Of a DNA stretch of 64,000 nucleotides, positions 37,101-64,000 are shown piece after piece (positions within the stretch are counted from its first letter, which is position 1; the number at the start of each line of letters is the position of its first letter). The stretch covers positions 1 through 64,000 of the forward strand of contig QPGO01000101.1 of the NCBI GenBank assembly GCA_008632985.1, written 5' to 3'. Under the pieces are notes generated by a model that was not told where the DNA came from, ran no database searches, and saw nothing but the letters and a program-made list of their open reading frames with translations. The position numbers and the translations under genes are program-made. Source of the stretch: Psammoneis japonica. Its lineage: Eukaryota.

Positions 37101-37400
37101 GGATTGGTGTGGGCATGGCAAGAGCATCACTGAGCTCAGCACTGCAAGAGATCCTGCCAGAATTTTTTCATTTGTTGTTGGGAAATGTGCCCATGCTCTG
37201 CACACACAGCAAAAAAAAGCGGCTCTCGCTTCCACACAACATTTTTTGTGGGTGGTGAGAGCAGCACCCATGGTGGATCAGTGTTTTGCAATTGTTGACC
37301 TCTGTTGTCATTCTAATTTGTTTGTTTGTGGCAACATTTCTTGTGTCAAGAGACAAAAGAGCTGGAAAACAGGCCACAGTCACAAACGACTTTTGTTGCG
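34130..37400. other. TpA- and CpG-depleted block, content unidentified
   Basis: Almost no TA between the BBE gene 3' flank and ~37430. Confidence 0.9.
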
Positions 37401-39568: not shown

Positions 39569-39636
39569 GGTGAAACGGTACGATACAGTGTTGCAGTGCG
39601 CTGTTGCGAGGAGGAAGTGCATGATGAACACGTGAA

Positions 39637-39675
39637 TCTCGCGATCTTCTGTGGAGCTGAATTCAACATCCGGGT
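39637..39675 (-). promoter_or_regulatory. conserved upstream motifs of Lhcf copy 1
   Basis: TCTCGCGATC (39637-39646) and TTCAACATCCGGGT (39662-39675), both also present upstream of copy 2. Confidence 0.55.
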
Positions 39676-40168
39676 ATTTCAATAAAGACAGGATGATTGA
39701 GTGGTGATTCGCGACCAATCAGTCCGTTTCTACGTGAATACATAGTAGTCTACAGTGCCGCTATAAAGTTTCCGATGCATGGCTCTGCGGGACTCGAAAA
39801 TGCCTCGTCGTCTCATCCAAACGCCGAATTCGAAACTCCACAGCTTATTGTTGTGCTACTAGATATGGTAGTAGAGTAGTCGTAGAGGATAGCCCTAGAG
39901 AAATAATATGGCTAGGGTACAATGACAAGGCGGTTCCCAAAGACCCATCAAATGATCCGCTGCGTACCCCAACTCAGTTCCCGAAGAGATGACAAGGTCC
40001 CCTTCTCTTGGAAGGGGTGCTTGATGCATGACACGAACAAAAGCAGTTGGCTGTAGTCCACTACGTTGCAATCGGGGACAGTTTGAAGGATCGACTTATA
40101 ATTAGCCATTCTACAGTTTGAGACTTGCTAGTAACATTTACAATCCAAGTCCATGTCGTACAATGTAC

Positions 40169-40842
40169 TTAGTTTCCTCCGGGAGGGAGGAGAATATCAA
40201 CATTTCCCATCTTGTCGTGAACCATCAATCCCAACAATCCCATCATGGCAGCGCGTCCTTGGTTCAACTCAATGGCACGCTTCTGAAGTTTGGTTTCTTC
40301 CGAAAAGGTGTCCCAACCGAAGTCGAGGGCGCCGTTCCTAAATCATAGTCAAAAACAAGAGTATGAGTGATCAGAACAAAAGTGTCCTTTCCTGAAGCCA
40401 CTCGTTGCACTCCTGGTTAGAATGATACATACCTGAAATCACCGACGAATTCTCCCAGACCCGTGTCGTCACGGTTAACACCTTCCATCAACAAAACGGT
40501 GAAAAAGACTTGGGCCCATACCGGAGCGGGAACCTTGTCAAGGGCGGCAAATCCGGCAGGAATGTCTTCGGCACCGGGGAAACGGATTCCGGCATAGGTC
40601 ACCAAGTATCCGACAACACCCAACATGGCAATACGTCCGTGCTTGATCTCTACCAATCGAAGACGGTCGAATTTTTCTTGGTCGCCATCTTCCACGAGAC
40701 CAAGTGGATCAAAGAAACCAAGCGGAGGTTGCGCACCAAGCTCGTTTTCAAAGGCCTTCAACGCAGTAGAAGAAGCAGCTTGCTTGGCGGGAGCAAAGGC
40801 GACAGCCGAGGCAATGAGGGAGGCAAGGACAACAGTCTTCAT
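40169..40842 (-). CDS. Lhcf: fucoxanthin-chlorophyll a/c binding protein; exons 40842-40433 and 40337-40169, 95-bp intron
   Basis: MKTVVLASLIASAVAFAP, FENELGAQPPLGFFDPLG, EIKHGRIAML. The intron is at the same GDFR position as in copy 1, and exon 2 has RAIELNQGRAAMMG. 192 aa. Confidence 0.95.
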
Positions 40843-40880
40843 GATATAACCGTGGATCGAAAATGAAAGTGTAGTTCAGG

Positions 40881-40950
40881 TCTCGCGATCGGAACAACAG
40901 CACAATCCAAGAAGTATCTTTTTGATCTTTTGCGCGTTCAACATCCGGGT
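40881..40950 (-). promoter_or_regulatory. conserved upstream motifs of Lhcf copy 2
   Basis: TCTCGCGATC (40881-40890) and TTCAACATCCGGGT (40937-40950). Confidence 0.55.
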
Positions 40951-40999
40951 TCAGAATCGACGTGGCCGCGCGCCTACCGTACAGTAAATGGATCGCGCT

Positions 41000-43900: not shown

Positions 43901-46900
43901 TTGTTTCTGTGTCACAAAGATCCACTTCATTGACCTCATGCATCAAGTCTTGGTTGATGCAACAAGACCCACAAAAGCTCCTTTGAACACAACAGGTCTG
44001 TTTTTGCATGAAATGCTCCACAATTCAACATTTCCTTCACAGCACAAATCACATCTGCCTCTTTTTGTCAATCAGCACTCTGCTTCTGCAGCTGCAAAGT
44101 TGAAGGAAGTTGTCAAAAACAACCACACACTGCCATGGTGATTTGCACAAAAAACACATGGCAGCACTTCATGAAGCTGTTCCCGCATGTCCTTGTGGTG
44201 TGAAAGCTTTTGTTGCCAGTTTGAAAGTGCTTTTTGTGCCACACCAAAAAACCACCATCTTGTTTGACCAGTTCTGGAGATTCCTGATGATTGTTCATGT
44301 GTGCAGCTGGAATGTTTTGTTGACTTGCACACTTGCAAGGACAAACAAAACTTTGCTCCCAAGAACAATCACCCTTTGTGTGTTTTGTGGTGCAATTTGC
44401 ACAACGAAAAGTGGAAATGAAGAGCAACAACCACTTGTTTTGATGCACTCCAGTGCAGGTCTTGTTCATGTGTTGAAGCATTCACAAGAACAAAGATGCT
44501 GTTTTCCAATCATCAAAGCAATTGCAAGTTGGTGAAAAAGCTCGAAAATTGCACAAATGTTTTTTTCAGTGCAGGTGTTGACCTGGCACTGGAACACTTC
44601 TCCCAGCAGACAACCTTGACATCCCAAGACAGCCAAAACACCGTTGCTGCTGATGCACAGTTGCAGTGCCAGATCCCACTTGAATTTTGTGACTGCATCA
44701 ACTGTGCAATGCCCAGTGCTTCTCTCATTTTCAGTGGATCACAAACGTGTTTTTTGAGCCAACAACCCTTTTTAGATTTGCCATTCATGGAAATGACAAA
44801 CGACAAATCAGGCCTTGGATGTGACCCACCTTCCAGAATTGCAAATGAAAAAACTGCAAATTTCTGGCACACAAAAAGGATCAGAAAGTGTGCGTCACCA
44901 TGACAAAATGACAGCCTGCACTTTCTTGATGAGAGGACCTTGCAGAGGCCCAAAATGAGCACTGCTTTGTTGCATTTTGTGAACTTGCATGTGGCCACAT
45001 TGAGACATGGGAGCAGAGCAGACATGTGGGGGTTCAGGGGCCAAAGGAGAATGAGGCATGTGTTGTGTGAAAGCATTTTGCTTGTTTTTGTGACGCAGGA
45101 TGACTTTCAAAACATGGAGACACACAGACATGCAATGTGGGCCAAGCTGTGTTGACAGAAGTTGACATGTCCTTGAACAGACAGTGACACATGACACAAT
45201 CTGTCACCATCATTGCCGTTGACCATGGATCAAGATTTCACTTGTTGCAAACAATGTCAAAGCCGGGCAAACATTGACACAACTCTCCTTCTTGCAGGTG
45301 ATTGCTGATCAAGTGACAGGAATCCTCAAAGTCATCACAGTTGTTGACCATTTCCTCCAGCAACTCATGGCAGTTTTCATGGTTTTCATGCAAATGGTTG
45401 GCGAGTGGGCGCACTTGTCCATTGATCCAAAAATGCTCCCCATCTGCTGTTTGCAACATCCCCATGACTGACTTGGCCATGCCGGCATCATTGTCGTGGA
45501 TGTTGCATTGGGGTTGTTCACATCCCCAGTGCACAACCGTGCACAGACTCCCGACAGTTGTTTGGATGGATGGTTTGGGCACAATCTGCTTTGCATTTTG
45601 GATTCTTCAGATCATCAAATGCACCCAATCCACTTGGAACCCAGCTGGCAGCAGGTGACATTGCAGCTGAAAGATCACTGAACCCAGCCATGTGCTGAAC
45701 AACTGGTTGTTGAAAAGCAACAGCTCTTGGGTTGGGCTTCAAGTGTCCGTTGGTGGTTTTTCACACAAGCTGCTCTTGCTGCTTGGCACTCTGTTGCAGG
45801 AAATGAATCCAGGTCATGTGTTTTTCCAACAGGGAATGAAGAATGAACAGCTTCCCTTTCCCAATCAGACTTTTCTTGTTGGACTTGAGCAGATCCCAGC
45901 AGCTTGCACTTGGCCATTCAAACACAAAGCCAAAATTTTGAAAATTGATTCCTTGAACAAGTGGTGGTGCGGTTCTTTCTTGAAAAGCGACATGAGCAAC
46001 TTGCAGTGTCAGATGGCAAAGAGATGTCCCCAATCAGCAGAAAAAGTGGGGCACCAGTGTGGGTCACCCTGGAGTCAGAGATGTCAACCACAGAAGTGCC
46101 AGCTCTGCTGCTGGCAACATTGTCAAAGACACCCAGTTCAGGAGCATCAACAAAAGACAAGAGATCACCTTTGCTGTTGACTGGGACACTGGCAAATTCT
46201 GCAGCCAGACTCTTTGCCAGGACTGACAGAAGCACCGCTGCAGCTGGAATCAGGAGAAACACCCAACTTGGAGACACCACTGCCACAACCAATGCTGGCA
46301 GTGTCGCCACCCTGGGCAAAACCTTCTGCACAGCTGCAACCACCTTTGGTGGCAGCCACACCCAGCCTGGCACCAGGGACATCACACAAACTGGGAGTGC
46401 TGCAGGAGCCACCCACAACAGGATCAGTTTCAACAATGACAATCCCATGTGCTGCAGGTGGCCTCCCTGCATGACCCTGCCCTTGGTGTGAATTGCACAC
46501 GAGGCACACATGACAGCCCAAAAATCTCCCAACATTGTTGACGTGCTTCGCGGGTGATGTGTGTGATGTGTTTTTGTGCACAGCTTTGTCACTCGACTTG
46601 TCTCTTCAAGCATTGCAGTCAACAAATCCCAGTGCAACCTTGTCTTCCACTGCACTTGATGCACTTCATGCTGTGTTTCTGGGATTTGATTGGCTTGCCT
46701 TGTTCTCAAATGATTGCCTCATCAACCACCAATCAGAAAGCATGTGACAATGCATGTGAATGAGGCACAAAAACTTCCAACCCCATTTTGTTGTCAAGAA
46801 GCATTTCCAGATGAAGCAAGAAAGATCCAGGTGACAACAGTGGAGTGCACACATGCAGAAGCCGCTGTGGGTCCCAACTTCATGCTTCCAAGTGCAGCAA

Positions 46901-48880
46901 CAAAACTCCCTTTTTCTTGCCAAAATGCACTTCCAGCCAACTGATGTCATGCCAACACAAAGTTCTCAATGGCTTTTGGGGTTGCAAGCAGAGGGTTGCG
47001 TTGGCCACAGAGCTGCAGCTGAAAATCATCCCTTGCACTTTTGCGTGCAATGAGGTGCTCTGCAAAAAGTCAGCTCCATTTTCAAATGCCCAACACCATG
47101 AACAACACACACCCAATCTGTTCTTGCAAGACATTGGTTTAAAAAGCAGGAGACTGACAATGCTCCAGGGAGTGGGGGCGCAGTGATTTGCCGTTGGCTT
47201 GTCATTTTTTGTGGCTTGGCCCAGGAGGTGCAAGAAAAATCAAAATTTTTATTTTCCCTTGTTTTTTCCCTCTTTTTTGAACTTTTGTGCCTCATCTTGC
47301 AGCAAGCAAAGCATGATGCAAGTGAATGGACAGCACTGCTGCCCAAAAATCCACACTGAGCCATGCTGCACTGGCATCTGAGTGCAACTTTCTGGGGTTG
47401 ACAATCTGCTGTGGCTTTGGGCATCGGGTGCATGGATGTGGCAAGTGCGCGCTTCTGTGCATCACATGTTTGATGATTTTGTCCTTGCCACATTCTTGCA
47501 GCGTGCCACCATGAGAGAGCAGGGAGCATGCAGAAGCTTTTGTTGCCACAGGTGGATTTGGTTGCTGCTGACCTGTTGGGGTTCTCATTTGTTCAGAGCG
47601 CAGTCAAAAATTTTGTTTCATGGACAGGCTTTTTTTCCAAAATGGTCCTCCCCCCAAGAGGCCTTTTTTGGTTTTGGCAGCTGGGGTCATTTGGCAAGAT
47701 TTGAATTTGAGGTGGAGCATCCTGCAAAAATTTGAAGGTGAGAGGGTCGCGAATGACTCAAATTGGAGTTCTCATCATTGGCATTGAAGCAAGCTCAGTG
47801 CATGCAGATGCACCCATGGGATTGGGTGAAAGGTGCAAACCTCAATGATGGATTCTTTGGGGCAGAAGCAAAATCGTCCAGCGCCATTCACAAATGAGAT
47901 TTGTTGCATTTTTGCTGGCAAAAATCAATGCAAAAAATTCAAACTTCTGCAAAATTGACCAAGGCTGCAGCTTTGGAAAGACCGCAGTGTTTGAAAACAA
48001 TGATGAAGAGAAAACAAGGGGAAAAAGGCAATCATCCAGCTGTGTGGGGGCAGCTCTTCACAAACTGTGCAGAAAATGTGCTGGAATTTGTGCAGAATCC
48101 CATGACAACACAATTCCATTTCCACAATGACAAGCAGAAACACACACAGTTTTCCAGCACAAATTTGATGGCAATGCCACAGACAGAGTCATTGTCAATG
48201 TGCCAATCACTGCATCATTTTGGGGTTTTTGACATCAGAGTTCCTCACTTGGCTCTGAATTTTCTCAGACAAGGAAAGACAAGGAAGTGAGACAAGGAAA
48301 AATTAGTTGGTGATTCAAAGTGTGGTTGCAACTGTCGTGATCCTTTCACCCAGCTGTTGATTTGTCCAGAGCTGGTGGCTGCTGGGACACCTCTTTTTGT
48401 GCGCCAGCTGTTGATTTTTCTGGAGCTTGTGGCTGCTGAAACACCTCTTTTTGTGTCAATGAGTGAGGCAGACGCCATTGGGGGGCACTTTCTCAAGGAC
48501 AAAAAGATGTGCTTCCATGATGGTCTCTTCAAGCATGCTGCCTGCTCCAATGAAGCCCAAGAGGCTGCTCGCACAGGCACAGTGTGGCAGCAGAACCTGG
48601 TGCAAAAGGCCTTTGTGCCTGCCCTGCTTGTGCTTGGGTTTTCTTGTGCCTCTCTTTTCACTGGCACACTTGCCAAAGAGAAACAGCACAGCATGCTGCT
48701 CATCAGCAGCTTTGACAGGAAAGGTTTGAGAGCAAAAGCAGAACATTGGCTGTTGCTGTGCAAGTTGTGAAAATCCGGAGTCTGGGCAGCAGCACAGCCG
48801 CAGGAAAAAGCTTTTTTGTGTTGTCCATTTTTGGGTTTTCTCTCATGTCTCTTGCCATTGACACACTTGTCACAGCAAAA
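41000..48880. other. TpA- and CpG-depleted block containing unidentified decayed coding sequence
   Basis: TA is nearly absent between the Lhcf promoter and the beta-helix gene promoter. Confidence 0.9.
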
Positions 48881-49145
48881 TGTAGATGTCATGCATTGAC
48901 ATTTTGGGCAGGAAACGGTTTGGTGGCAAGATCAAACATCGATCATTGCCACATTTGGTTTGTTGTTTCCGTCTTCTGTCGCGGCGCAAAACGTCCGGCC
49001 GTTGTACGTGCGAATTGAAGGATGGCGTTCTCTACTCGACTCCTCTCCTCCTTTTCCTCTTCTTTTTTTCATCGTGACCGGACACAGTATGAAAATTTCG
49101 ATTTTTCGCGGATTTTCGTGCAACCCCCCATGACCCATAAGCACC

Positions 49146-50012
49146 ATGAAGACGCCTTCGCTGCTGGCTTTAACATTGGCCCTCACCTTGTCCTCTTCTG
49201 TCGTTTCCTCATTGGAGCAGATCAAAGGTGCCCGATCCTCCCATCGGCGCAAACTGAAAAGCAGCACAGGAAAAGGAGGAAAAAAGGGCGCGTGTTCTGT
49301 TGGAGCGACCGTTCTTTCTACCTGTGATGACACTCTTGCTACTGACAACGAGCTGGTCGTCCTCTACGACGATCTTGATTGTTCGTCGTTTGATGGAATC
49401 AATGGAGTCACCATAACAGGAAACGGAATCGTTTTGGACTGCAAGGGCAACAAAATCATTGGCAACTCCAGTGCAACAAGCACTGCGATGGACGGCATTT
49501 CCATCACTGGAAATGTCGACACCATCCAGAATTGTGTCGTTGAAGAATGGAGCAATGATGGAATTGAGGTGAAGGGTCAAGGAACAAAAATCATTGGTGC
49601 TGTTTCTACCAAAAACTTTTATGGACTCTTCCTCAGTTCGAGTGGTTCGGCAACCATCTGGGATTCCTGTTTTGATGAAAATCATCAGAACGGAGCATTC
49701 CTCTCAACCTCAACCTCTTTGCATGCCACCAAGTCAACCTTCAACAAGAATGACAACAACGGAGTCACTTCTAATGGGCAGGTCACCCTTGTTGACAGCG
49801 AAGCGCTGATGAATGGTCGGCGTGGCATTTACGGACGTGCCGCGTCCACGGTCCTTCTGCACAATGTGCGTGCCTGCGACAACGACCAAGATGGCGTTGG
49901 CAGGGATGACGTGAACGTCCTTGGCACAGGCACAACCGACGACGTCTTCAATTCTGTAACCTGTGATACCAGCGACACCCCAAGTGGCGACATTTGTGTA
50001 TGTGAATGTTAG
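49146..50012 (+). CDS. secreted right-handed parallel beta-helix (pectin-lyase-like) protein with an RXL site and a KGGK motif
   Basis: Signal peptide, HRRKLKSSTGKGGKKG, DLDC..GVTITGNGIVLDCKGNKIIG, repeated N-x-x-x-G-I/V motifs. Confidence 0.75.
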   Translation: MKTPSLLALTLALTLSSSVVSSLEQIKGARSSHRRKLKSSTGKGGKKGACSVGATVLSTCDDTLATDNELVVLYDDLDCSSFDGINGVTITGNGIVLDCKGNKIIGNSSATSTAMDGISITGNVDTIQNCVVEEWSNDGIEVKGQGTKIIGAVSTKNFYGLFLSSSGSATIWDSCFDENHQNGAFLSTSTSLHATKSTFNKNDNNGVTSNGQVTLVDSEALMNGRRGIYGRAASTVLLHNVRACDNDQDGVGRDDVNVLGTGTTDDVFNSVTCDTSDTPSGDICVCEC

Positions 50013-50595
50013 GTACATTGCCCCACTAGAAGTACAAGAGTAGTGGCACCCACCAGTGCTGTAGTCTAGAATAATGCTAGACCTAAAGTAGTTGTTCTTC
50101 CTTTGAACAAGCGAGGTGCTATCCTTTTCTCCAAGCCGTCGTATGCTGTTATTCGAGGAGCGACATACAACTAGGATGCCACGAAAATAAAATAGGTAAA
50201 ATTTTGACTACGGTACAGTAAGGCTGTTCGTGTCTTTCGCTCTAGATTGCCAAACGCAAGCTCAAGAGAATTCATCAATGATAACACACAGTCTTTCGTT
50301 TCATCACCAACAACGCATAAATAGGTGCAGTGAGTGCTGCAGTCTGTAAAATCCAACGTGACTTCGAGCGGCGCCTGCAGTGTTGTTGCATGACATCAAA
50401 ATCATAGAGTCGCCGGATCCATGTTGCGTGCTTCACCACCCACCGCAATCACAATAGCTTGCATTATCAGCCCATTGAAAAATCACGTCCTTTGTTTGGC
50501 GCTTTTTGTATATATTTTTCAAAAAGCTTGAATGCCTTCGAGCACCTATGCCGGTCAGCCGCATTTCATCCAGAGTGATACCTCATTCCTGCGGG

Positions 50596-51459
50596 TCAAT
50601 ACCCCATCCTAAAAGAAGACAACTTGAACTGATGTTCAAACACCTCTAGGTCTTCCAGGGCAGGTCTAGCGTGCTTTGTAAGTTTCTTGCCAATTTTAAT
50701 GATTGCTTGATTCAAAAGATGTTCCAGACCTGCCAACTCGCCAGCGCCGTTCAGTAAATACAAGGTTTTAATGTCCTTGTATCGCTGTCGGTCAAAACAA
50801 AGAGACGACTTGGTACCGTTTTCAAACACTGGATAGTGTCCTCTGTAGCTTTTTCTCACAGCAATCTCGAATATGACAGACTCGTCATTCAAGGAGATTA
50901 CATCGATACATAAGGATTAATCGAGCATCCACAATTCGAATAGCTCCGTAGCAATACCCGCTCGGAACTGATTGCCTGGCAATGCTTTCGGAACCAATAC
51001 TTGGGAGGAGTTTTGTGATATTCGATGGTACACATCTCACACCATTTGCCTATCCGCAAGGTACTCGCTTGTTTTGGCAAGACTGTAATTGGATTCTGTT
51101 TTGAAAGATAACATTGCATCGCTTTGTAGTATTTTTTAAAAGTTTCGCCTTGTATCACAAAGGGATCCAATCATACATGACGCTGAACGAGCCTCTTGGC
51201 AAATCAATCCTGAATGACGCTGCACGAGCCGCAACTTGGCAAATCGAATGGAAAAAGAACTGCCAGAGCAGCTGCTCGTGAGCATCACTAAGGGTGGAAA
51301 TGACGTCGCTTTGCTGTTCTTCTCGTAAATTTCGCTTCGAATCACTCTTTCTTCTTTGATGCCTTTGTTACTCTTTACAGAGGATGGTGGAGTCTCTAAA
51401 CGATCCACCGAGAACCAGAGAACTATAAAGGCCAACACCATCAACGTCACTGCAGACAT
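50596..51459 (-). pseudogene. fragmented membrane-anchored hypothetical gene (frameshifts or unrecognised introns)
   Basis: MSAVTLMVLAFIVLWFSV...LTSSCSGSS followed by successive ORFs 50898-51170 and 50596-50892. Normal composition. Confidence 0.4.
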
Positions 51460-51620
51460 CCTGCGTGGGGGGCATATGCAACGACTGCTGTACTTCTTCT
51501 GTGAAAGACTGTTACGAGTACACACAAAACTGTGCAGAAACTCTGGGAGCCACGGCCTTTTCAGAAATTGGAACAGAGCATGCCACCATACCGGTACATC
51601 CAGTCCTCACAACACTGACA

Positions 51621-51867
51621 AGTCACGACTTAGACGTCATCTGGTCGCAGAACACGACTGCCAACCAAGACATCGAAATTATTAGCCTCGAGATTCGAAA
51701 TAATTAGCCACCGCTTGAAACGCAAATCGGATTGTAACGAACTTTGTTCATAATCTTTAGACAACGACAGTTGACAACGTCCGTTCACCTCTTTGCTATT
51801 GCTATTGTTACTTCTATCAACGAGATCTCCGTTGACTGCTTGTCAGCCTCGGAACAGTACATCGAGT
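51621..51867 (+). repeat. 5' LTR
   Basis: Aligns without gaps to 58522-58768. Confidence 0.95.
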
Positions 51868-51880
51868 GGTCATGAGCCCA
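51868..51880 (+). promoter_or_regulatory. primer-binding site, half-tRNAiMet type (GGTCATGAGCCCA, cf. GGTTATGGGCCCA)
   Basis: Lies immediately after the 5' LTR and resembles the copia internal-tRNAiMet PBS with a TA->CA change. Confidence 0.6.
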
Positions 51881-51987
51881 ATTTACGCGACGGCGCCGAG
51901 CTTCTAGCCGAGTTTGCCGCCACGGACGCCATTTTTGAAGCAAACCCGGGAAAGCAGCGAGTTTGAAACGCACTTCTCGTCTTCACC

Positions 51988-54100
51988 ATGGCACCAACTC
52001 CTCCACCCTCACCCACGAGCACTGGGACCGGCGCCGCGACGCCGAACACCAAGCTCATGAAAGACCTGCTGTCGGTGTTCTCCGGCACGGGAATCAAGAA
52101 CGAACCGCCGCCAACTCCTCCACTTCGAGGCGGAATCCACAAGTCCCATGGAGTGCACATTGGTGGTTCGAAACTCAACGACACCCATGACCAGACCGAG
52201 CCGCGTGCTTGCCGATTCGCACCCCAGCGTCGTCACCCCAAGGCTGTCGATTCGATCGAGCGCTCTCTCCGAGACCAACAAGCTTCCGCGATGACCTCCA
52301 AGTTCAACGGACGACTTGAGATTTCAAATGGCCCTGTCAACGAGCTCGACAAGGATCACTTTGTAAAGACCATTCAAGATTTAGTTGAAGCTCATGGACA
52401 GGAGACGTTCTGCCACGTGAAGAAATCGGATGGGACGGTCGCCTGCATTTTTGACAATCTCCACGAGTTTTCAGCAACGGATCTATGAAACGAATGCACC
52501 ACCCATTCGGCAGCTTCGGACAACTCAGCCTACGATGACATCGAGAACGACAACATCGGGCTCTCCCAGCTGCTGGCATCATCTAGAATCACAAATTCCT
52601 TCCGTGAGAAAATCGACACCAAGTTCAACCATTTGAAAAACTTCAAGAACCACCCGGGGTCCACACTTTTCATGATGGCCCTGGATGTGTGCAATGCCAG
52701 TGCTCCAGCTGACGTTGAAAGTGCCAAGATGGATCTAGAGGAGCTCAGTCCATCCAAATGTCCTGGAGAAGATTGCACGGAACTCGCTGCCGAAGCCCTC
52801 CGACTCATCAAGATTGTGCAGACGGACTGCGCCGCACCGCCCAATGCGGGCTCCAAAATTTTGCACAAGGCATCCAACACGTCCTCAGAGCACTTCAATC
52901 GCTCAGTGCACAACAAGTTTGATGATGTTAAACTGATGGAACGCAAGCACCGCTTGAAGGACCCTGCCGCAATCAAGTCGGACAGTTCCTGCGCGACCCT
53001 CGGACCGGTTGGCATCATCGCATGGATCCAGGAGGAGCACAATGAACTCGTCAAGGATAGAGAGTGGCCTGCTTTGGCAGCGAAACTTCCTGAGAGCAAC
53101 CTGTTGTCCGCTGACAAGCCTGCCAAGACGAAAAGTTGTTGGGGATGTGGTCTCGAGGGTTGCACCAAGAAGACCTGCCCCAAGTGCAGCAAGAATCAGC
53201 CTTCCGCGAACTCCGAGCGCGAATCCTCGGGACCGTCCGACCCCAAGAACAACAAATTGCGCATCGCCGCGTGGCGCATCAAGTTTGTTGGGGATGCTGC
53301 TGCGGATCCGAAGGGGCGCCCGTACAAATGGTGTGCGAAATGCAGAGCCAAGGGTTCGGACAAACCCGGACTCTACCAGCGACACTCTACCGCGGAGCAT
53401 GCGGAGGATTTCAAACGCCCTCCGAAGGAAGAGCCGTCCGGGAACTTGTCTTCCGTTGAGGACCCTGATCATGGAGTGCCCATGGGTCCCCCGGCACAGA
53501 CAGACAGGGAGCCCTCCGATGAGGAATCGGACCCGAGCGAGTTGATTTTTACAGGCGTCTGGTGTGCCGCTGCTGACGCGGCCGACGACCCTGACTTCCT
53601 TGCTGCCCGCATTCCTGCTACGGTGCTAGTTGCTCCTGCACCTTCGGCCGAGAGGGAGAGCGATGAGGATGTTAGCATGGATGTGAGTTGCATTCAAACG
53701 AGCTCACATGTCAATGTCCCAGTTGGGGATCGAGTCGTCCCTCCAGTCGTGGTTGAGACAGTGACTCCCGAAGACGCAGACGATTTTTTTGAATGCTCCG
53801 ATGCTTTGTCTGCTTTTGAGGACTTGCCTCCGGCTGTTGAGCTGTTCCCGGCCTCCAAGATGCATTCGATCAAGAACCCCGACGAGTTTTTCGACGCACC
53901 CGTGATCCTCACGGACATGCTGTCAGACGTCGTGTTGCACGACCTCGTTGTTGAGCACGACACACACTTTGAAGATGCCTGCGATGACTCACCTCCGAGC
54001 ATTGCGTGCCATGGTTTTGATTTTTATGACCCAGAGAACATTGGCCTGGATGATTGTCAGGCAGAAGACGAAGAAGAGACCTCTTCGCGTCGGTCTCTCT
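51988..54100 (+). pseudogene. gag region of the copia element (in-frame TGA at 52486, frameshift near 54100)
   Basis: ORFs 51988-52488 and 52633-54396 share a frame. CWGCG zinc-knuckle-like and YKWCAKC...H motifs. Confidence 0.7.
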
Positions 54101-57100
54101 GGGGAACGAGCCAAACTCTTCGTGTTCTGGCTCGCCGCCATGTTTTGGGAGACAGTGTTGCATGTCTGCTTTGCCCCTGTCCCTCATTTGCCTCGAGCAC
54201 TATGCCGCCGACGCAAAATCCCTACCCCTGCATGGGTTCCCAGCATCATGGATGGTCCTTTCCGTGGCCGTCATGGTCTGGACGTCTGTCTACGTTGGTC
54301 AGCTACCCATCTGTCCATTTTCGGACGTACCAAGCCGACTCTCGACCGCTGGCTCCCAGGTCTACGACACAATTGGCGAGCTCGACGACCGCATAGAGTT
54401 AGACGCTGGAGCTCTGTTCGAATGCAACAAAATCAAGGGCAAACAAGTGCTCACCGAGTTCGTCTCGCGCCATCCATCGCACGCGCTCAGCAAGCGACTT
54501 CAAACCCGCTGGAAGCAAGTGTCGCTGCTAGAGGAGTCAGCAGCGGTCGATGAATCAGCCTGTTTCGATTCCTGTGAGGAATTAGAACCTCTCGACGACC
54601 AAAAGTACTTCTTCGACGCCCAGGACAAGCTCTGTCCCGATTTCTTTCGGTTCGACGAGCTCTGCATCCCTCATCACGTGGTTGACACTACGAAATTTCA
54701 AGATCCTACAGCTTTGTTGGAAGAAGCACGTGTCAGTTCAGTTGTGTGCAACGCGTGTGCGCTTCAGGTGCTCACCGGAAAGTCCGAAGCCGAGTTGCCA
54801 GCAACTGACCCGCAAGCTCTCATCGGTCTGTCCGACGAAGACCTGACGGTTGTCATGGACACAGGAGCCTCTTTGGCCATCACACCAGATAAAAATGACT
54901 TCATTGGCCCCATCACGGTCCCCAACAAGCCCTTGAAGTTGGGCGGGATGTCGAGCGGCCTCACTGTTCAAGATGCAGGTGCATGTGGCAAGCGTGAGGG
55001 CGATGGCCAGACTTTTCGCATCATTGTCGACGGAGCAGGAAAGTTGGTCGTGCCACATCATCCATCAAATCACTCACCTGCTGCATCCATGTCAAAGGGA
55101 GCATCTGAAGCTCCCCAGATGAACCCACTTGTTCTCAACGAAGAAAACCAAAACCTGACAGCCGGTCAGAAGCTTCTGTTGGAGACACATGCCAAGTTTG
55201 GTCATTTGAATTTCGCACGAGTTCAATCGATTTTGCACACTGTTCCGTTCCTTTCGAGCCGTTTCAAGTGCGCGTCAAAGTGCGATCTCCCACGTTGCGA
55301 GGCATGTGAACACGCCAAGGGTCACCGACGCTCTCTTGGTTCCACCCGCAAAACGACAGTCCCTGAACGCGACGGGGCCCTTCGCGCTGACCATCTTCGA
55401 CCGGGTCAGGCTGTCAGTGTCGATCATTTTGAATCACGTCTCCTCGGCCGGACTTGCAACTCCTGCAGGAAGGCCACGTCCAAGCAGTGTAAAGGAGGAT
55501 GCATTTTTGTCGATCACGCCTCAGGATGTGTCCAAGTAGAGCACCAACTCGGGTTCTCCGCTGTGGAAACGATGCGGGCGAAGCAAGCGCATGAGAAACA
55601 CGCGTTGGACCATGGGGTCATTGTTCAAGAGTTTCTCACCGATGGCGGAGTGTTCAAAGCCAACAAATTTGTCCAGCATGTTCGCGAACATGAACAGAGA
55701 CTTCGATTCTGTGGTGCCAATGCCCATCATCAGAACGGCGTCGCCGAGAGATCCATCCACAGTGTGTCCAACATGGCGAGAGCGATGTTGCTTCACGCAT
55801 CAATCCATTGGAAGGGGGGGGTTGACAGCTCATCATGGCCCATGGCAGTTTCTTGCGCCACTTGCATCTACAATGTCACCCCCAATGTCCACGGGTGTTG
55901 CCCTGCAGACATTTTCACAGGTTCAATGGTTCCTCATCATCGCCTGCGAGACATGCACACATGGGGTTGTCCGGTGTACGTCCTTGACCCGGTTCTTGCC
56001 TCCGGCAAGAAACTCCCATGATGGCAACCTCGCACTCGCCGCGGTCTTTTTGTTGGCTTGAGTGCAATCCATTCAAGCGAGGTCCCACAGGTCCTGAACC
56101 TACAAACAGGAAGCGTCACTGCCCAGTGTCATGTGGCGTTTGACGATCTGTTCACTGCCGTTCCTTCGATCGAGAGGGAGACGGAACCACCTGACCACTG
56201 GGAGCAACTGTGTCTCGAGCAGTCCATTTGCATCCCATTGGAGAAAGATCAACCGGTTCACCTTGATGATGAATGGCTTGCTCCTCCAGAGCGTCTTCGC
56301 AAGGAACGAGAGGCAGCTCGAGAGACTCGCACTCGTCAGAATTTCGAGCCTCCGCCTTCGATTTCGGCTGCGGATCAACCCAACTCTCGTCAATCTGACA
56401 CGGATCGAGTCCTGCCTGCGACTCAGGAACCGCCTCCAGTCCCACATGCGACTCAAGTGCTGCCAGAAACCACTGAGCCTACGACAATTCAGCCACCCAC
56501 CGAAAATGGCAACGACTTTCCGCCACCAGAGCCGCCTGAAGCACCTCCCGATTCCACAGCACCTCCTCCTCCGGTCGAACCATCTCCAAGCTCGAACTCA
56601 GAGGGAGCCACAGGGCTGAGACGGTCTTCACGGTCTGCAAAGGGACAGTTTCACTCCACCAAGTTCATCGACGAAGCATTCTTCAGTCCGGCAGAAGAGG
56701 AAACAGAACCGATTGGCCACGGTGCGCAGCTCGCCTGTCTTGCATCACTCGAAACTGATTTTGACAATGGAGAATGCAACATCTACGATCCTAGAGCCTA
56801 CGCAGCATCTAAAAAGATGGCTGATCCCAACATGCCTTCATTGCACAACGCCCTAAAAGGTCCAGATGCCAAAGAATGGATCAAGGCGATGAAGATCGAG
56901 GTCAACACGCTCATTTTGCGTCGAGCTTGGGTCGCAGTCGAACGAACTCCAGACATGAATGCACTGCCTGGGACTTGGGTTTTTAAACTCAAGCACCTGC
57001 CCAATGGCACGCCATTGAAGTTCAAGGCACGGCATTGCGTTCATGGTGACTTGCAGAAGGAAGGAGTCGATTGTTTCGAAACTTGTGCGCCGGCAGTCCA

Positions 57101-58514
57101 ATGGTCCAGCATTCGGCTGCTGCTCACGACTGCACTCAAAGAAGGATGGACCACTCGACAGGTGGATTACACCACAGCATTCTGTCAAGCTGACATCACC
57201 AAAAAGGTCTGCGTCCAGCCTCCGAAGGGTTTCACGCCGAAATCGGGTTTCAACATGGTGCTGAGACTCCTGAAGGGACTCTACGGACTCAAGCAGTCAC
57301 CCAAGTGTTTTTGTGAGAAGCTGCGAGATGGCTTGCTCGAACGCGGTTGGGCAGCGTCCGCCATCGACCCTTGTTTGTACTTCAAGAAGGGCATGCTGTG
57401 CGTGGTGCACGTTGATGATGCAGTGTTCGCTGGAGCGTCCGCCAAGGCTGTCGAGGAAGAGATGCGAAAGCCAGGGGTCGCCGACAGCGAGCATCGACAC
57501 GCATTTGACCTTAGAAACGAAGGAGAGGTCGGAGATTTCCTCAGAATCAAGATTGAGAAACTGTCCGATGGCCGATTTCGCCTGACTCAACCCGGACTGA
57601 TCAAGAAGGTCCTGCGTGCGGCCCAGATGGAGGATTGCCGTGGAGTTGCTGCTCCGGCTCTACCTGAAGCTGTTGGTGCCGATGCAGACGGCCCGCCCTT
57701 TGACGAACCCTACGATTGCCGTTCTGTTGTCGGAATGTTGATGCATTTGGCAGCGAACAGCCGGCCAGACATCGCACATGCCACGCACCAAGCAGCTCGG
57801 TTTTCGTTTGCTCCCCGAGCGTCCCACTCTGTTGCAGTGAAGAGGACACTCAGACACCTCAAAGCCACCTCCTCCGAAGGTCTCATCTTGAAGCCGACTT
57901 CAGACGATCGTGTTGATTGCTACGTCGATTCGGACTTCGCGGGACTTTTTGGTGTCGAAGATGGCCAAGACCCAATTTCAGTCAAGTCCAGGACTGGATG
58001 CCTTGTTTTCTGCTCTGGCTGCCCGCTTGTCTGGGTGTCCAAGCTGCAGACTCTTGCAGCCTTGTCCACTGTGGAGGCGGAGCATGTCGCCCTGTCACAG
58101 GCTGTGCGCGATCTCATCCCTCTACGTGAAGTTCTCAAGGAGCTCAACCACCACGTTTTCGGAAAATCTGACCGCCGTAACCCTGTCACGACTCACTCCA
58201 AGGCTTTCGAGCTCGCAAACCAAGGCACCGATGACTCGCCTGTTGAGCAGAGTGTCCCACCTGTGTCCGTTGTGTACGAAGACAATGCCGCGTGCCTCAA
58301 GTTCGCACGCATGCCCAAACTGTCTCCACGAACCAAACACATTGGCACCCCGCATCACTGGTTTCAGACCAAAGTCGAACAATTGGAAATCGACATCCAA
58401 CCTGTCAACACCCTCGAGCAACCAGCCGATCAATTCACCAAGGGCCTGCCTGCAGACATGTTCCATGCAGCCAGACTAGCTCCAATGGGATGGCAATTTC
58501 TCTCTGTCGGTTGA
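54054..58514 (+). pseudogene. pol (protease, integrase, reverse transcriptase, RNase H) with one in-frame TGA at 56019-56021
   Basis: VMDTGAS; HAKFGH...CEAC; VSVDH...FLTDGG...HQNGVAER; KFKAR.C..GD.Q, LYGLKQSP, VHVDD; CYVDSDFAG, ALSTVEAE, YEDNAAC, RTKHI, ADQFTKGL. Confidence 0.92.
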
Positions 58515-58521
58515 GAGGGAG
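58513..58521 (+). promoter_or_regulatory. polypurine tract
   Basis: GAGAGGGAG directly before the 3' LTR. Confidence 0.8.
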
Positions 58522-58768
58522 AGTCACGACTTGGACGTCATCTGGTCGCAGAACACGACTGCCAACCAAGACATCGAAATTATCAGCTTCGAGATTCGAA
58601 ATAATTGGCCACCGCTTGAAGCGCAAATCGGATTGCAACGAACTTTGTTCACAATCTTTAGACAACGACAGTTGACAACGTCCGTTCACCTCTTTGCCAT
58701 TGCCATTGTCGCTTCTGTCAACGAGATCTCCGTTGACTGCTTGTCAGCCTCGGAATGGCACATCGAGT
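58522..58768 (+). repeat. 3' LTR (heavily TpA-mutated)
   Basis: Aligns to 51621-51867. Confidence 0.95.
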
Positions 58769-59379
58769 TGACATGAAACTGGTTTGATGGGTTCGTCGCA
58801 ACATTGCATGGAGCGTTCCTCATCTGTGCCACAAGCAGGTTTTAGAGTCAAGAGTCAATTGTTGAAGCACGAAGAGCACGCAAGCCCAGAAAGTGCAAGG
58901 ATGCAGCAACGCAGGTGGCGGATGCAGTCAAGAACCCAAGACTCAAGGATCTGCCGGCACAGCAGTGAGCAGGCAGAAACTGCACTGAAGACGGTGCTGC
59001 GAACGGAACCACAAGCAGAGGTGAAAGCAAGAAGATGAGGAACGACAACATTCTTGACATCATCAGGGAAAACAACAAGATCAGTGAAGGGAAGAAGTGA
59101 GAGAGCAGAGGAGTGTGGGGCCTGCTCACTCCAAAACAACTGTTGACTCCAACACCTGTCAGAGTGTGCTGAATCTTTTTGTGGGAGATTTGTGATTTTA
59201 GAAATCCAAACCCTGGTGCCAAATGCAGTTGTTCCAACACAACCATTTTAGAAACACCACACTGACCATGCGAGAGAACAGCGGTGGAGACAGAGCCACA
59301 CCCAGCCTGTCTGCAATGGCAACAAAGACGGACGAGATGAGCAGCATCTCAACAAAGACATTCAAGAACAAGAGTGAGT

Positions 59380-61380
59380 TCAAGAAATGCCCACAAAACA
59401 CCAACCAAGGTCAAGGGCTGCATGGAGGAGCTGTGTGACTGCACACATGACAAGATGGGCCGCAAGCGGCAGCAAGCTGGGTGCCTGCTGCACAAAGACT
59501 GCGCAAGAAGTTGGGTGACTGCATGAAAGTTGCACCATTGAGCAGCTGGAAGAGGTGGGTGTCAATGCAGAGAAGACCTCAGCACCTCCAAAGGAAAACA
59601 AAGGAAATGTGGACAAGGTTGACCAAGAAATGTGGGCAGAGGAGATCAAAAGCTTCATCAGATTGAAACAAAAATGCCGACAAAACATGAAAAAGGAGCA
59701 CACACGCAGATTTGGAGCCAGTGCAGCAACACCATGAGATTGGTGGTGGAAGCTCACAACAATTGTGTTCAAGTTGCAATGAGGAGAAAAATGCCAGCCA
59801 CTGGTGGGTTGATCCATGTGGCTGTGCGGCATTTGTGCAACTCCCGCCAAGGCCAACAACTTGACTTGACACAAGCATGGTGCAAGAGGTTCCAGGCATC
59901 ATCAAACATTGTGATGTTCATTGGCAGGGAGGTGGCTCACCATGAGATGCTGCAGAAGAGCAGCCTTTGCAAAAAAATCCCACCAGATGGACAAGGCAAT
60001 GTTGGCACAGAAGAGAACTGCATGAGCAGAGGCCAAGGAAGAACATCTGGCCACCGCCTGTGTGTTCATTCTTGGAGCAGCAGTCCGAAGGTGATGTGGG
60101 GTGTGATCAAAACCCCAACAAGTTTCCACCCAACAGGGGATGACAGATGCCCAAGGACCGTGGTGCAAGCATGTGGCATGCTGTCAAACTGGTGCAGCTG
60201 GTCCAACATGCAGCACGCCACATCAACAGGCAATGACTGTGCAGCATCGCCAATGTCAACAGAGCCTCTTCCAAAGGTGGGGGGGGCTGATCTGCAGACC
60301 TCATCACATGCTGTCTTGCAACAACAACACTCCATTGCAAACTTTGTGGAAGTGGCAGAAAGTGGGGAACTTGATGATGCCAATGACCTTGGTTTCCAGT
60401 TTTGCACAGTGACCAAGGAAGACAATGAAAGGGGATCAGCTGACTTTCAGCTGACTTTCAGCTGACACACCAGGCACAAGCAGTCAGATGATGGTGGCAT
60501 GCACCAAAGCTGGACATTGACCAGCAACCAGCCCATGTGCAACACATTTGTGAGTGCAGGCATGCTCCAGAACATCCAGCCAAGGCAAAAGAGAAATGTC
60601 AGGTCACTTGCAACAACCATGAATTCAACACATTCATCATCCACAAGAACAGCAGCAGCACCCAGAAATTCAAAGAGCCCCCATCAGGTTCACATTTCTG
60701 TGACACCACATCACCAGAGCATCAAGCACAAGCAGCCATCACACTGGTCAATGGTGGTCAACACGGTTGCAGGAAACAAGGCCACATGCTTGGCTTGCCA
60801 TGATGTCAAGCAGGCCCAACCAGCAAGAACAATCCAGAATGAAGACCATGACACCAAATTGCAGGGGCAATCACCCTCTGACCAACCAGGAACACCCAAG
60901 GCAGACACTTCTTTGTCAGCCTTGAGTCAGGATGCCACATCAACTTCTGGAGCTGCGGAAGCCATGAATCCAGGCACTCCTGAGAGGTGTGGGGGATGAC
61001 ATTGCTGCTGCTTGTTTCAGCAATGCCAGCTGTGCTGACAGTTGTCATGTGATGCAAAGGCCCTGCACTGGGATGATCATTTTTGTGCCCCTTGCCCCAA
61101 TCTTTTTGCACTTGGCATGGCAGAACACTGTTGCATTTTCAACCTTTGAGTTGGAGGTTGTTGTGATGAAGACAATCAATGCATTTTGCTGCACACTGTG
61201 GATGGACCCACTGGTCTCTTCTGAGACAATGAAGCCACATTTGAGAACCCCAAGTCAAACAGAACCTGCACTTGAAAAAAAGTGCAACACAGCTGCACAT
61301 GTCAATGAGCTCATGCAATGCAGGTGGCTGGAACATCACAGGTTGCATGGGGAGGAGGACACAGAAATTCAGCCAATGTT
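59380..61380 (+). mobile_element. very decayed copia-like retroelement remnant
   Basis: VDQEMWAEEIKSF...AHTQIWSQCS (gag-like), LTSNQPMCNTFVSAGMLQNI (cf. LLDNQST..F.N...L.NI), VNTVAGNK...DVKQAQ.AR.IQ. Confidence 0.5.
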
Positions 61381-62249
61381 CTCACCAAGTTGGTGCCTGG
61401 GCTGACTCATCAGTTGCATCTTAAACGTGACTGGCAGCATCATTTTCAGCAATCACAAACCCATTCTCTTGAAAGACAGAAAAGCAAAGGACAAATGCAA
61501 TGGACACACAGTTTCCATGGCTGCCTCTCATGGGTTGCTGTTTTTGCAGTGTTCATTTTGCTTCTCATCACTGCAGCCAGAGAAGAAACAAGGGGCTGGC
61601 CATTTGAGCAAACAGCAGATCAACAAACCCTGTCCATGCTCTTTGAGATGGGGACAAAGAACTCTGGGAATCTAGAAGCATGAGAGTGCAACATGCAGCA
61701 GATGGGGTCATGACTTGGGGTGCATGCTCTCCAAGTTAGGATGAAGCAATTGTGGCTGGTGTTGCAACCGAAATGAAGTTGGCAGCCCAGCTGTGTTCCA
61801 GCAGCAAATGGACAGATCTTCTGCTCTTCTTGTCTCTCAACAACAATGCTGACCACAATTGGAAGAACGCCTTTGATGTCAAGCACAAGTCGCAAAGTGG
61901 AAATGTCATGCCAGTGTGGAACAAAGGCGAAGAGTTCATGTGCTGCTTCTTCACATTGGATGGTGATGCACAAAGCAAATGTTCTCAGTTCAAATTTGAT
62001 GGGAAAAAAGTGGCACCAATGATTGATGATTGTTTTTGGTGTCCAATCTAAACTCAAACAGAAGAGACTGGAGTGGCTTTTTGCAGCCTGTGAACAGAAA
62101 AACAAGTTGAGCTCTTCCAGAGTGGCGCGCCACACATTTTCCAGCTTTGAATGGAGTGGTGAATGTTCTGTTGCACCACCAAGAGAAATCTCAGTCAATG
62201 TGAAACAGCTTGCACTTTCTGGCAGGTGTGGGTGGATGTGTCAACAAAT

Positions 62250-62720
62250 TGAGTTGCCCTGGGGTTCATGATGCCTGCAAAAAAAAAAAACCATCACAGG
62301 TCCCATTGTGCACTCCAACACCCCAGCCTTCTTTTGCACCAATTCAAGAACCCTTGGTGCATCAAACAGCTCTCCCAACTCATCCACCAACAAGACAAAC
62401 CACAGGGGAAACCCCATCCAATTCACCAACAACCTTGATGCCTGCCCAGGATCCAACTTTGACACCAACAAATTTCTCCAACAGCCCAAACACTTGATCC
62501 TGTGGCAAGAGCAACATTGAGCCCAACAAGTTTGCCAACCACATTGCAAACATTGAATCCTGTGTCACCTCCCATGCTGTCTGTGACTCAGGGACCAACA
62601 CCCATCCCTTCAAACTCAACCATGCCCATGCCAAATTCAAACCCCTGCTTCATTTTAAACACCTTGTCCAACACAAAAAGAGCCTCACCTGTCCCAGCAA
62701 GGCATCTCACTCTGGCACCA
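62250..62720 (+). pseudogene. relic of a Pro/Thr-rich (PT-repeat) secreted protein
   Basis: TPTPQPSFAP..EP..PTHPPTRQ.T..PSNSPT..PT, SPTSLPT. Confidence 0.4.
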
Positions 62721-63039
62721 GCTGATGCACCAAAGAAGGCCCAAACACTGCCAGAAGTGAGTGACAATGACAAGAAAATTGAAGTGGCTTCAGAACTGGG
62801 GTCCTTGGGTGCTGGCAGGAATGCCAAAACAACAATGAATGCAAATCTTCAATGTGTCAGAGTGGTGCTTGTGTGGCATGGTCTGCTTGCTTCCCAATCA
62901 AGCACAAAACTGGCATGCTCTCTTTGACAAAGACAGAGCCAACAATCAACACTGTGTTTGATGCCTCTGCTTTTTTGACTCAAGCGGCCACCAAGCTTGG
63001 CACAATCAAGTTGACCAGACATGCAGCATGATGCAAAGC

Positions 63040-63370
63040 TGCACCATGTTCGCGGAGAAGATGGAGGTGCTCAATGTCTTTGTGGTGGATCTGTTTGAGT
63101 TGGACTTGTCATTTTGTGATTTTGGATGCCATGGAATTGATCGACTTTTGTGCTGTGACACAAAACGCACCCACGATTTAGGCTGCAAATGCTTCCCTGT
63201 TGGAACCTGTCTTCAAATCGTCCTCGTCATTCACAACTCAAGGCGGTGTGGTTGCGCAGGTCATGCCAATGAAAATGTTGCCACTGCAACAATGCATCCT
63301 GCCTCCTCTCTGGTGTTGGCACATGAGCTTTGTCATTCACTCTCTGAACCAGGCAATGAGTGCCATTGTG
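63040..63370 (+). pseudogene. relic metallopeptidase fragment (M64/IgA-peptidase-like)
   Basis: LNVFVVD...FGCHGIDRLL...IVLVIHNSRRCGCAG...VATA....LVLAHELCHSLSEPGNEC, cf. N...YGGAG...HE.GHS...LADEY. Confidence 0.5.
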
Positions 63371-64000
63371 GGCGTGGCAATGACTCGGCCTCACGGGGAA
63401 GGCAAACAAGCCAAAAGGTTATGACAGAGTGAAATGCATCCCTGGTTGCACAAACAAGGCCTTTTTTGGTAAAGGCGATCCAAGCGGACTGCCCAACCGC
63501 TAAAGTGTGAAAGCTGTTTCTATTTAAAATGATTTGAGGGTCTTGTCACTAGCTTGTCAATTTTGTTTTGGCCAAAAGTTATCATCCAGCATGTGTCGAA
63601 TTGCACTGCTCTCCTAACACCCCGTAGAGTCTTTGGGACTACCCTTGGGTCTAAAGTCAACGACGCTCGTGTGTTGGCCCCGCAAGATTTGAGATTGCCG
63701 AGAGATAGACAAAAATCATGGCGGGCAATTCAAATCCCGCGTCTTGGAGGGAATCCTTGCCACGCACCACGGCGAGTTGAAAGCCACCGTTTGTCGCGGC
63801 AAATGAAATGATCCAAGCCAGAGCTTCTCCGTCTGACGACGCTTGGCAAAAGGAAAGATAACACTAGTTGGAGAGATTTGATAAGGTTAGGAAAAAATAC
63901 AGCCCGCGTAACTCAAACGATTTCTCAAAACTGTTGCACGACGAAAGTGTTTGGAGCAGCAGAGCACGCGAAGAAGGCGTCTTGCCGAGGGAAATGCGTT

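Follow-up and report, generated by a model that had tools for sequence, protein, structure and literature searches.

Probable post-insertion TpA hypermutation of a copia retrotransposon at the edge of a depleted domain in a diatom genome

The copia element and its terminal repeats

The stretch of DNA analysed here, in the following called the window, comprises 64,000 nucleotides of the diatom Psammoneis japonica (assembly GCA_008632985.1, contig QPGO01000101.1, positions 1 to 64,000 of the forward strand). It harbors a Ty1/copia retrotransposon whose two long terminal repeats (LTRs) of 247 bp, the 5' LTR at 51621-51867 (+) and the 3' LTR at 58522-58768 (+), differ mainly at TpA (TA) dinucleotides that are kept in the former and lost in the latter. 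The element is located at the edge of a TA-depleted domain, and its present state is probably the outcome of a regional hypermutation of TpA to CpA or TpG that took place after its insertion.

The retrotransposon is framed by the target-site duplication TGACA, which can be read directly at 51616-51620 (+) and 58769-58773 (+). Its interior contains a gag-like reading frame (51967-54396, +; one in-frame TGA at 52486-52488) that matches no Pfam family, and a pol reading frame for integrase, reverse transcriptase (RT) and RNase H (54054-58514, +; one in-frame TGA at 56019-56021). The RVT_2 domain of the RT (PF07727, E 1e-36) occupies positions 56925-57662 (+), i.e. residues 290-535 of the open reading frame (ORF) 56058-58514, and eight full-length copia homologues cover 54810-58493 in a tblastn search that found no second copia in the window. 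Pfam rve gave no match, although the integrase is visibly present: its zinc-binding His, His, Cys and Cys codons (55188-55307, +; columns 55188, 55203, 55296 and 55305) are all retained (4/4), and these conserved columns (55188-55305) lie upstream of the RT domain. The LTRs with their target-site duplication, the RVT_2 match, the span of the copia homologues and the order of integrase and RT identify the element as a Ty1/copia LTR retrotransposon, and the named relatives found in the homologue search are diatoms. The presumed primer-binding region (51868-51885, +), so called from its position alone, starts with GG and reads TGG together with the last T of the 5' LTR; a tRNA scan of the window for a matching gene returned none. 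A polypurine tract-like run (58512-58521, +), whose role is likewise suggested by position, directly precedes the 3' LTR.

Both LTRs stem from one insertion, as the preliminary description of this locus had held, because the target-site duplications match and an empty-site form lacks exactly the element and one duplication. This form was found among contigs from three runs of one sample (X1-X3), with the joint present in X1 and X2. It connects position 51615 to 58769, with five letters fitting either side, and skips 7153 bases, which correspond to the element and a single duplication. In its flanks, the empty form is nearly identical to the window (no other letter and six gaps over 51400-51615, one other letter in 58769-58813). 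Contig depth in this sample, which is not copy number, was 27-34 for element-specific contigs versus 55-67 for others. These observations fit an insertion that is heterozygous or otherwise polymorphic, and hence young.

The ungapped alignment of the two LTRs over all 247 positions confirms the 15 substitutions (94% identity) reported before, and every one of them is a transition (15/15). Eleven of the differing nucleotides fall into ten TpA dinucleotides of the 5' LTR, none of the 15 into a TpA of the 3' LTR, which has CA, TG or CG at these ten sites; the CG results from one TA that is altered at both bases. The four remaining differences comprise one C/T exchange (LTR position 67), one A/G exchange (position 100) and a dinucleotide at 235-236 that reads CA in one LTR and TG in the other, with TA seen in neither. 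The earlier count of 13 of 15 differences at TpA is accordingly to be divided: eleven lie in extant dinucleotides, whereas the two at 235-236 presuppose an ancestral TA that is not observed, and the two at positions 67 and 100 lie outside TA as stated. With respect to strand, the differences at extant TA sites comprise seven T/C and four A/G exchanges.

TpA dinucleotides make up 26 of the 247 LTR positions, and the concentration of 11 out of 15 differences in them is highly significant (binomial p 1.6e-8). The 5' LTR contains 13 TpA (observed/expected ratio, o/e, 0.67) and the 3' LTR three (o/e 0.18), all of which are common to both. The preliminary description had not recorded that all differences at extant TA sites are one-sided; ten sites have TA in the 5' LTR only and none in the 3' LTR only, which corresponds to a two-sided sign test p of 0.002. 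All 18 CpG dinucleotides of the 5' LTR are conserved in the 3' LTR, which has 19, so that the shared CpGs are indeed unchanged; the loss of 10 out of 13 TA versus 0 out of 18 CpG (Fisher p 6e-6) bears out the claim that TpA change outpaces CpG decay. Overall LTR divergence amounts to 6.1%, but it drops to 4/221 (1.8%) with TA sites masked and to 2/219 (0.9%) if the inferred TA at 235-236 is masked too.

The depleted domain and the direction of change

The base composition of the window is bimodal with sharp edges. About 40.9 kb belong to TA-poor runs with a TA o/e of 0.03-0.19 (0.00-0.29 in their 1-kb bins), whereas the rest shows a TA o/e of 0.45-0.76 and a CG o/e of 0.91-1.25; in no 1-kb bin does the TA o/e exceed 0.83. 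The 5' LTR, with its value of 0.67, matches this ordinary DNA. The older runs (14451-19250, 23751-29000, 34051-37500, 40951-49100 and ~58800-63500) are also poor in CpG (o/e 0.12-0.43) and rich in CA/TG (o/e 1.6-2.2). The interior of the copia element, with a TA o/e of 0.16 and a CpG o/e of 0.91, has lost its TA and kept its CpG.

The location of the element at the edge of such a domain is a second addition to the preliminary description. The left flank (49101-51615), which contains a beta-helix gene (49134-50012), is of ordinary composition, with 5-19 TA per 200 bp from position 50000 and the last TAs at 51589 and 51595; the stretch 49101-52400 as a whole has a TA o/e of ~0.50 and a CG o/e of ~0.97. 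Ordinary TA density persists through the 5' LTR up to position 51905 and then falls. The left edge of the TA-poor tract is contained in the interval 51906-52363, since the last closely spaced TAs are found at 51884 and 51905 and the next one at 52364. On the other side, the right flank (58774-63500) is an older depleted domain, in which TA occurs up to position 60500 only at 58843, 59199 and 59249 and CpG is sparse from ~59000 onward. The spared 5' LTR hence adjoins ordinary DNA, and the mutated 3' LTR has the altered interior on its left and the old depleted domain on its right. This arrangement suggests a targeted state that extends over the element from its right side as far as ~51.9 kb.

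The preliminary description took the LTR pair itself to fix the direction of change. The pair alone is unpolarised; the direction TA to CA/TG stands, but it rests on the tyrosine codons of pol, a ferrochelatase pseudogene, a pair of paralogues and the erasure of TA across the window. For pol we compared columns conserved in at least 60% of 150 homologues, which were obtained by a search of 1.84 billion representatives. The RT/RNase H part has 228 conserved columns, nine of them Tyr, at which the element has His at four, Cys at four and Tyr at one, while the conserved His (5/5) and Cys (3/3) are kept. In the integrase part Tyr is conserved in three columns, at which the element has Cys, Phe and Tyr, and His (7/7) and Cys (3/3) are again retained. 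In total, nine of 12 conserved Tyr columns have become His (four) or Cys (five). Tyr is encoded by TAY, His by CAY and Cys by TGY, and these replacements therefore document a TA to CA/TG polarity on both strands. One example is the catalytic Tyr of the YxDD motif (column 463, Tyr in 87% of the homologues), whose codon at 57408-57410 (+) is now CAC for His, resulting in HVDD. Its loss destroys a catalytic residue, which argues that the changes postdate the last autonomous transposition. TA is retained to a similar extent in the 3' LTR (3/13) and in the Tyr codons of pol (2/12; Fisher p = 1.0). The CA/TG site at 235-236 of the LTRs in turn implies that T changed to C, or A to G, at least once, unless a CpG ancestor was altered independently in both LTRs.

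The same polarity is found outside the retrotransposon. The ferrochelatase pseudogene (~25434-26574, -) contains stops and frameshifts, is embedded in a TA- and CpG-free block and includes a fragment with 60-75% identity to proteins of Nitzschia, Seminavis, Ditylum, Thalassiosira-type and other diatoms. Of the 12 columns in which Tyr is conserved, the pseudogene has Cys at eight, His at two, Phe at one and Tyr at one, so that ten out of 12 are Cys or His, and all conserved His (4/4), Gln (6/6) and Trp (4/4) are kept. The nine conserved Arg columns show Gln, His or stop at four positions, Gly at one and Arg at four. Of the two paralogues, which are 79% identical, one is located in ordinary DNA (19248-19720) and the other inside a depleted block (16650-17100). 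At 22 sites the former has TA and the latter CA/TG, and the reverse occurs at none (22:0); the corresponding ratio for CG versus CA/TG is 20:1. Two tandem paralogues of fucoxanthin chlorophyll proteins (38885-39718, -, and ~40170-41005; ~73% identity), which are both located in ordinary DNA, served as a control and showed a balanced ratio for TA versus CA/TG (7:7) among 211 differences. Pol, the ferrochelatase pseudogene and the paralogue pair represent three independent polarised tests, and all of them run from TA to CA/TG.

Several further observations concern these blocks and their surroundings. The ordinary copy of the paralogue pair starts exactly at the right edge of the depleted block and runs into the ORF 19507-20475. 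Positions 17001-19000 show a GC skew of 0.41-0.54 and a CA o/e of 2.7-3.2 versus a TG o/e of 1.5, a strand asymmetry unlike that of the other depleted blocks. A direct repeat with ~75% identity (23740-23960 / 29517-29740) brackets the block with the ferrochelatase pseudogene; its differences are mixed (TA 3:2, CG 4:2, 21 transversions). A light-harvesting gene without introns has solved fucoxanthin chlorophyll a/c proteins as matches (E 1e-64) and, like the ferrochelatase fragment, points to a diatom-like organism. A Pfam search with 94 stop-to-stop frames of the depleted blocks yielded only ferrochelatase and a histone deacetylase (HDAC) domain above the curated cut-offs. The HDAC-domain frame (13403-14419, -; PF00850, E 2.5e-26) covers the first half of the profile only, lies in a TA-poor and partly CpG-poor stretch and reads VHL where solved HDAC6 has VYL in one alignment; it is possibly a further gene copy in decay. 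Just outside the TA-poor run 7901-11850, two tandem 83-base copies (11867-12032) exhibit four differences, all TA versus CA/TG, which are split 3:1 between the copies. The long frame 8820-11585 (+), TA-poor with normal CpG, encodes a Lys/Asp/Thr-rich repeat protein with 87-base tandem repeats at 9446-10267. The low TA of this frame and of the GC-rich frame 4483-6549 (-) may reflect either their own composition or the mutational process.

A proposed mechanism and its rivals

The change in question takes place in DNA, affects both strands alike, is specific for TpA and regionally confined, and outpaces the decay of CpG. The preliminary description had placed it after insertion and at the level of DNA, which agrees with the lost YxDD tyrosine, the alteration of both strands and the presence of the same pattern in sequences other than retroelements. 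In the scenario that we regard as probable, a single copia element would have inserted, with duplication of TGACA, at the left edge of a TpA-erased domain. A regionally confined process acting on DNA would then have converted TpA to CpA or TpG, i.e. caused transitions from A:T to G:C at 5'-TA-3' sites of either strand, in the element interior and the 3' LTR, which now appear continuous with the depleted domain, and it would have left the 5' LTR beside ordinary DNA almost untouched. If the changes of the 3' LTR share the polarity of the interior, the LTR pair would record the spectrum of the process directly (10 of 13 TA and 0 of 18 CpG lost). The asymmetry of the pair would reflect its position at the domain edge, with a silenced or targeted state spreading from the right, and a slower decay of CpG to TpG/CpA would follow in older domains.

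The least certain step of this scenario is the chemistry. ADAT2/TadA enzymes naturally deaminate adenine 34 of tRNA, which follows uridine 33, and enzymes of this type would suit a TpA context because of that natural target. Our preferred candidate, to which we would give slightly less than even chances, is an enzyme that deaminates adenine to inosine at TpA and acts on both strands. Inosine at 5'-TA-3' would give TG on the affected strand and CA on the other, and deamination of both strands would give CG. A double-strand event at a single TpA is in agreement with the CG seen once in the LTR, and this double change suits either an adenine or a thymine chemistry.

Some points weigh against the scenario. 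Four of the 15 LTR differences lie outside any extant TA, and the 10:0 one-sidedness has to be accommodated by the auxiliary idea of a domain edge. A defective copy may also have been mutated earlier and then mobilised in trans. The runs X1-X3 represent one sample, possibly the source of the window assembly, and their contig depth is no measure of copy number. No outgroup copy of the LTR was found in the sample contigs or in metagenome contigs: the LTR bins have depths of 44 and 64 with no sign of further LTR copies at least 80% alike in the sample, and an LTR 24-mer had no match in the metagenome contigs. The latter contain three loci related to pol, with 32-33% identity and an ordinary TA o/e of 0.73-0.85, which are useless for polarity. 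Among the 40 differences listed of 643 between the window and relatives of the element in the sample, there is no case of TA in the relatives facing CA/TG in the window and one of TA in the window facing TG in the relatives; seven others show CG in the window and TG/CA in the relatives. The relatives of the element are thus themselves decayed, with no unmutated reference among these 40 differences, and for this reason the family LTR consensus, proposed earlier as a means of refutation, is a poor and confounded test in this genome.

The opposite polarity would apply if the LTRs had been TA-poor at insertion and the 5' LTR alone had gained its ten TAs by C-to-T changes of CpA/TpG, as in repeat-induced point mutation (RIP). 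The LTR pair by itself permits this reading, the indices of the 5' LTR are RIP-like (TA/AT 0.81; (CA+TG)/(AC+GT) 0.83), and diatoms are reportedly discussed together with RID-like DNMT4 enzymes (PMC9998398). The altered blocks of the window, however, are the opposite of RIP products (TA o/e 0-0.2, CA/TG up to ~2, and no 1-kb bin above the TA o/e of 0.83 given before), and the value of 0.67 for the 5' LTR is simply ordinary here. In none of the polarised tests, all of which point from TA towards CA/TG, has a conserved His, Cys, Gln or Trp given way to Tyr or a stop, and the CA/TG site at 235-236 calls for a T-to-C or A-to-G change unless it descends from a CG, yet 18 of 18 other CpGs are intact; we therefore consider a RIP-like origin very unlikely. 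An editing of RNA or single-stranded cDNA before integration by an APOBEC3/ADAR-like deaminase, by which the LTRs would never have been identical in the chromosome, draws on the order of retroviral replication. The plus strand of the 3' LTR is made after the copying of plus-strand strong-stop DNA from the minus strand, and a late editing event can accordingly mark one LTR alone. A preprint on the chlorarachniophyte Bigelowiella natans moreover states that ADARs prefer U before the edited A (bioRxiv 10.64898/2026.01.13.699255). If one single-stranded intermediate had been edited, the changes should be confined to one strand, but both strands are altered within one LTR (7 T/C, 4 A/G) and within pol (Tyr to His 4, Tyr to Cys 5); RNA editing is unable to make two LTRs differ, and the ferrochelatase pseudogene and the paralogue pair, which are no retroelements, show the same spectrum. 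These findings make an origin before integration highly improbable.

The chance that the LTRs do not derive from one insertion, or that another element replaced the sequence of one of them through recombination or gene conversion, appears very small. Potential partners are suggested by the many diverged relatives of the element interior in the sample (373 contigs aligned, 204 of them less than 90% alike), but the sample contigs give no sign of other LTR copies as donor, the 5-bp duplications match, the empty allele lacks exactly the element and one of them, and a donor is not expected to differ only at TA sites (11/15, p = 1.6e-8). A variant that shares process and direction with the preferred scenario assumes the thymine of TpA as the target, which would, for example, be oxidised enzymatically to 5-hydroxymethyluracil or a further modified base and then miscopied or mis-repaired to C. 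TpA is self-complementary, so that T-to-C and A-to-G changes at TA are indistinguishable from sequence, and hydroxymethyluracil in dinoflagellate DNA occurs preferentially at TpA and TpC. Nothing in the window favours a thymine chemistry, and the authors of the B. natans preprint (bioRxiv 10.64898/2026.01.13.699255) prefer adenine deamination, with an ADAT2-like candidate; we rate the thymine variant as unlikely.

Three other mechanisms were rejected. Transcription-coupled asymmetry predicts that R-U5 of the 5' LTR is altered too, but spared TAs extend to position 238 of 247. Targeting by homology or small RNAs alone cannot tell two LTRs apart, and GC-biased gene conversion predicts no TA context.

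Consequences and comparison with known systems

The warning of the preliminary description that LTR dating would be inflated in this genome is justified by the values of 6.1% versus 0.9-1.8% with TA sites masked, and the former cannot be used to date insertions. The second consequence concerns reading frames. A change of TA to CA/TG destroys TAA and TAG and cannot create them, which explains why depleted DNA often contains long spurious open frames. With triplets taken from each position of the + strand, the element interior contains 104 TGA, 15 TAG and 8 TAA triplets, compared with 48, 20 and 27 in the left flank. Mutated elements accordingly keep long frames and will be mis-annotated as genes, while Tyr-depleted proteins escape domain searches, as exemplified by the integrase without a Pfam rve match. 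Judged from their sequences, other public copia-type polyproteins carry the same signature of Tyr loss. Five of 262 copia homologues retrieved (P0137, P0143, P0068, P0009 and P0261) have less than 1% Tyr (0.05-0.89%; median of all ~2.9%), one of them 0.05% in 2061 residues, and P0137, P0143 and P0068 show His or Cys at 7-8 of the nine conserved Tyr columns.

The LTR pair amounts to a natural before-and-after experiment, in which two sequences started out identical at insertion and one was then altered while the other was spared. The findings also show a process that keeps to a boundary with a width of a few hundred bases, outruns CpG decay and can affect copies of host genes. A literature search for TpA hypermutation in diatoms found no report; the only relevant hit was the B. 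natans preprint. A:T-to-G:C hypermutation of TpA is otherwise known from this 2026 preprint on a single chlorarachniophyte, and the window would place it in the diatoms, which are major primary producers.

In mutation-accumulation lines of B. natans, according to the preprint (bioRxiv 10.64898/2026.01.13.699255), 231 of 302 nuclear mutations fell into two integrated viral regions, one of a nucleocytoplasmic large DNA virus (NCLDV) and one of a virophage, and 230 of these 231 changed A to G or T to C, in every case at TpA. In these regions the rate was ~6e-7 per site per generation, in some lines only, versus 3.5e-10 elsewhere; the genome contains 124 TpA-poor, CpA+TpG-rich clusters, and an ADAT2-like adenine deaminase was proposed. 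For the NCLDV region 211 events were reported over 3132 generations and 6169 TpA, from which our own arithmetic derives ~1e-5 per TpA per generation. If this figure is transferred to the diatom, by analogy only, the loss of 10 out of 13 TA would take ~1e5 generations, whereas 6.1% divergence at a background rate would suggest ~1e8.

The two systems have in common that almost only A-to-G and T-to-C changes at TpA occur, giving TpG/CpA, that these are regionally confined and far above background, and that the long-term result is a clustered low TpA with high CpA+TpG, with RT genes among the depleted sequences. The differences concern lineage, targets and depth. B. natans belongs to the Rhizaria, its proven targets are NCLDV and virophage insertions, and its TpA rho is only as low as 0.45; the targets in the diatom window are an LTR retrotransposon, the pseudogene of a host gene and a paralogue, with a TA o/e down to 0.03 over ~41 of 64 kb. 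The older domains of the window are also CpG-depleted, and the Results and Discussion of the preprint do not mention CpG, LTRs or diatoms. De novo events were observed in B. natans and are deduced in the window. On this basis the spectrum is the same, lineage, targets, depth of erasure and accompanying CpG loss differ, and the process appears new for diatoms and for an LTR target.

A broader and more speculative view, which we hold to be somewhat doubtful, is that of a domain-bound "inverse RIP" in diatoms. A mutator would act on the adenines of both strands of TpA in silenced DNA and erase TA in perhaps 10^5 generations, before CpG, in mobile DNA as well as in duplicates of host genes, with edges sharp enough to bisect one retrotransposon. 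Given the same spectrum in a chlorarachniophyte, it might even represent an old genome-defence system across the algae of the SAR group (stramenopiles, alveolates and rhizarians). If true, the dating of transposable elements and the base composition would be distorted, and so would gene prediction, with TGA as the only surviving stop. The sequences affected in the window include the copia element of mobile origin, but also the ferrochelatase pseudogene, the HDAC-domain frame and the paralogue of a local gene; most depleted blocks have no Pfam match.

With fungal RIP the process shares a dinucleotide-specific, transition-only hypermutation of mobile or duplicated DNA that inactivates genes and renders repeat divergence useless as a clock. 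The polarity is the opposite: RIP converts CpA/TpG to TpA and lowers GC, whereas TpA is converted to CpA/TpG here, no TAA or TAG stops are created and long open frames persist; in place of TA-rich, GC-poor repeats the window has runs with a TA o/e of 0.03-0.19. APOBEC3 and ADAR likewise cripple retroelements by neighbour-dependent transitions of the deaminase type, but they act strand-specifically on single-stranded cDNA or RNA, and the window shows neither strand specificity nor a restriction to reverse-transcribed sequence, as both strands and sequences other than retroelements are altered. The older domains finally resemble products of methylation-driven CpG decay in their low CpG o/e, their excess of TG/CA and the 20:1 ratio of CG versus TG/CA in the paralogue pair. 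CpG decay nevertheless differs from the process recorded by the LTR pair, in which 0 of 18 CpGs changed, and the young element combines a CpG o/e of ~0.9 with a low TA content.

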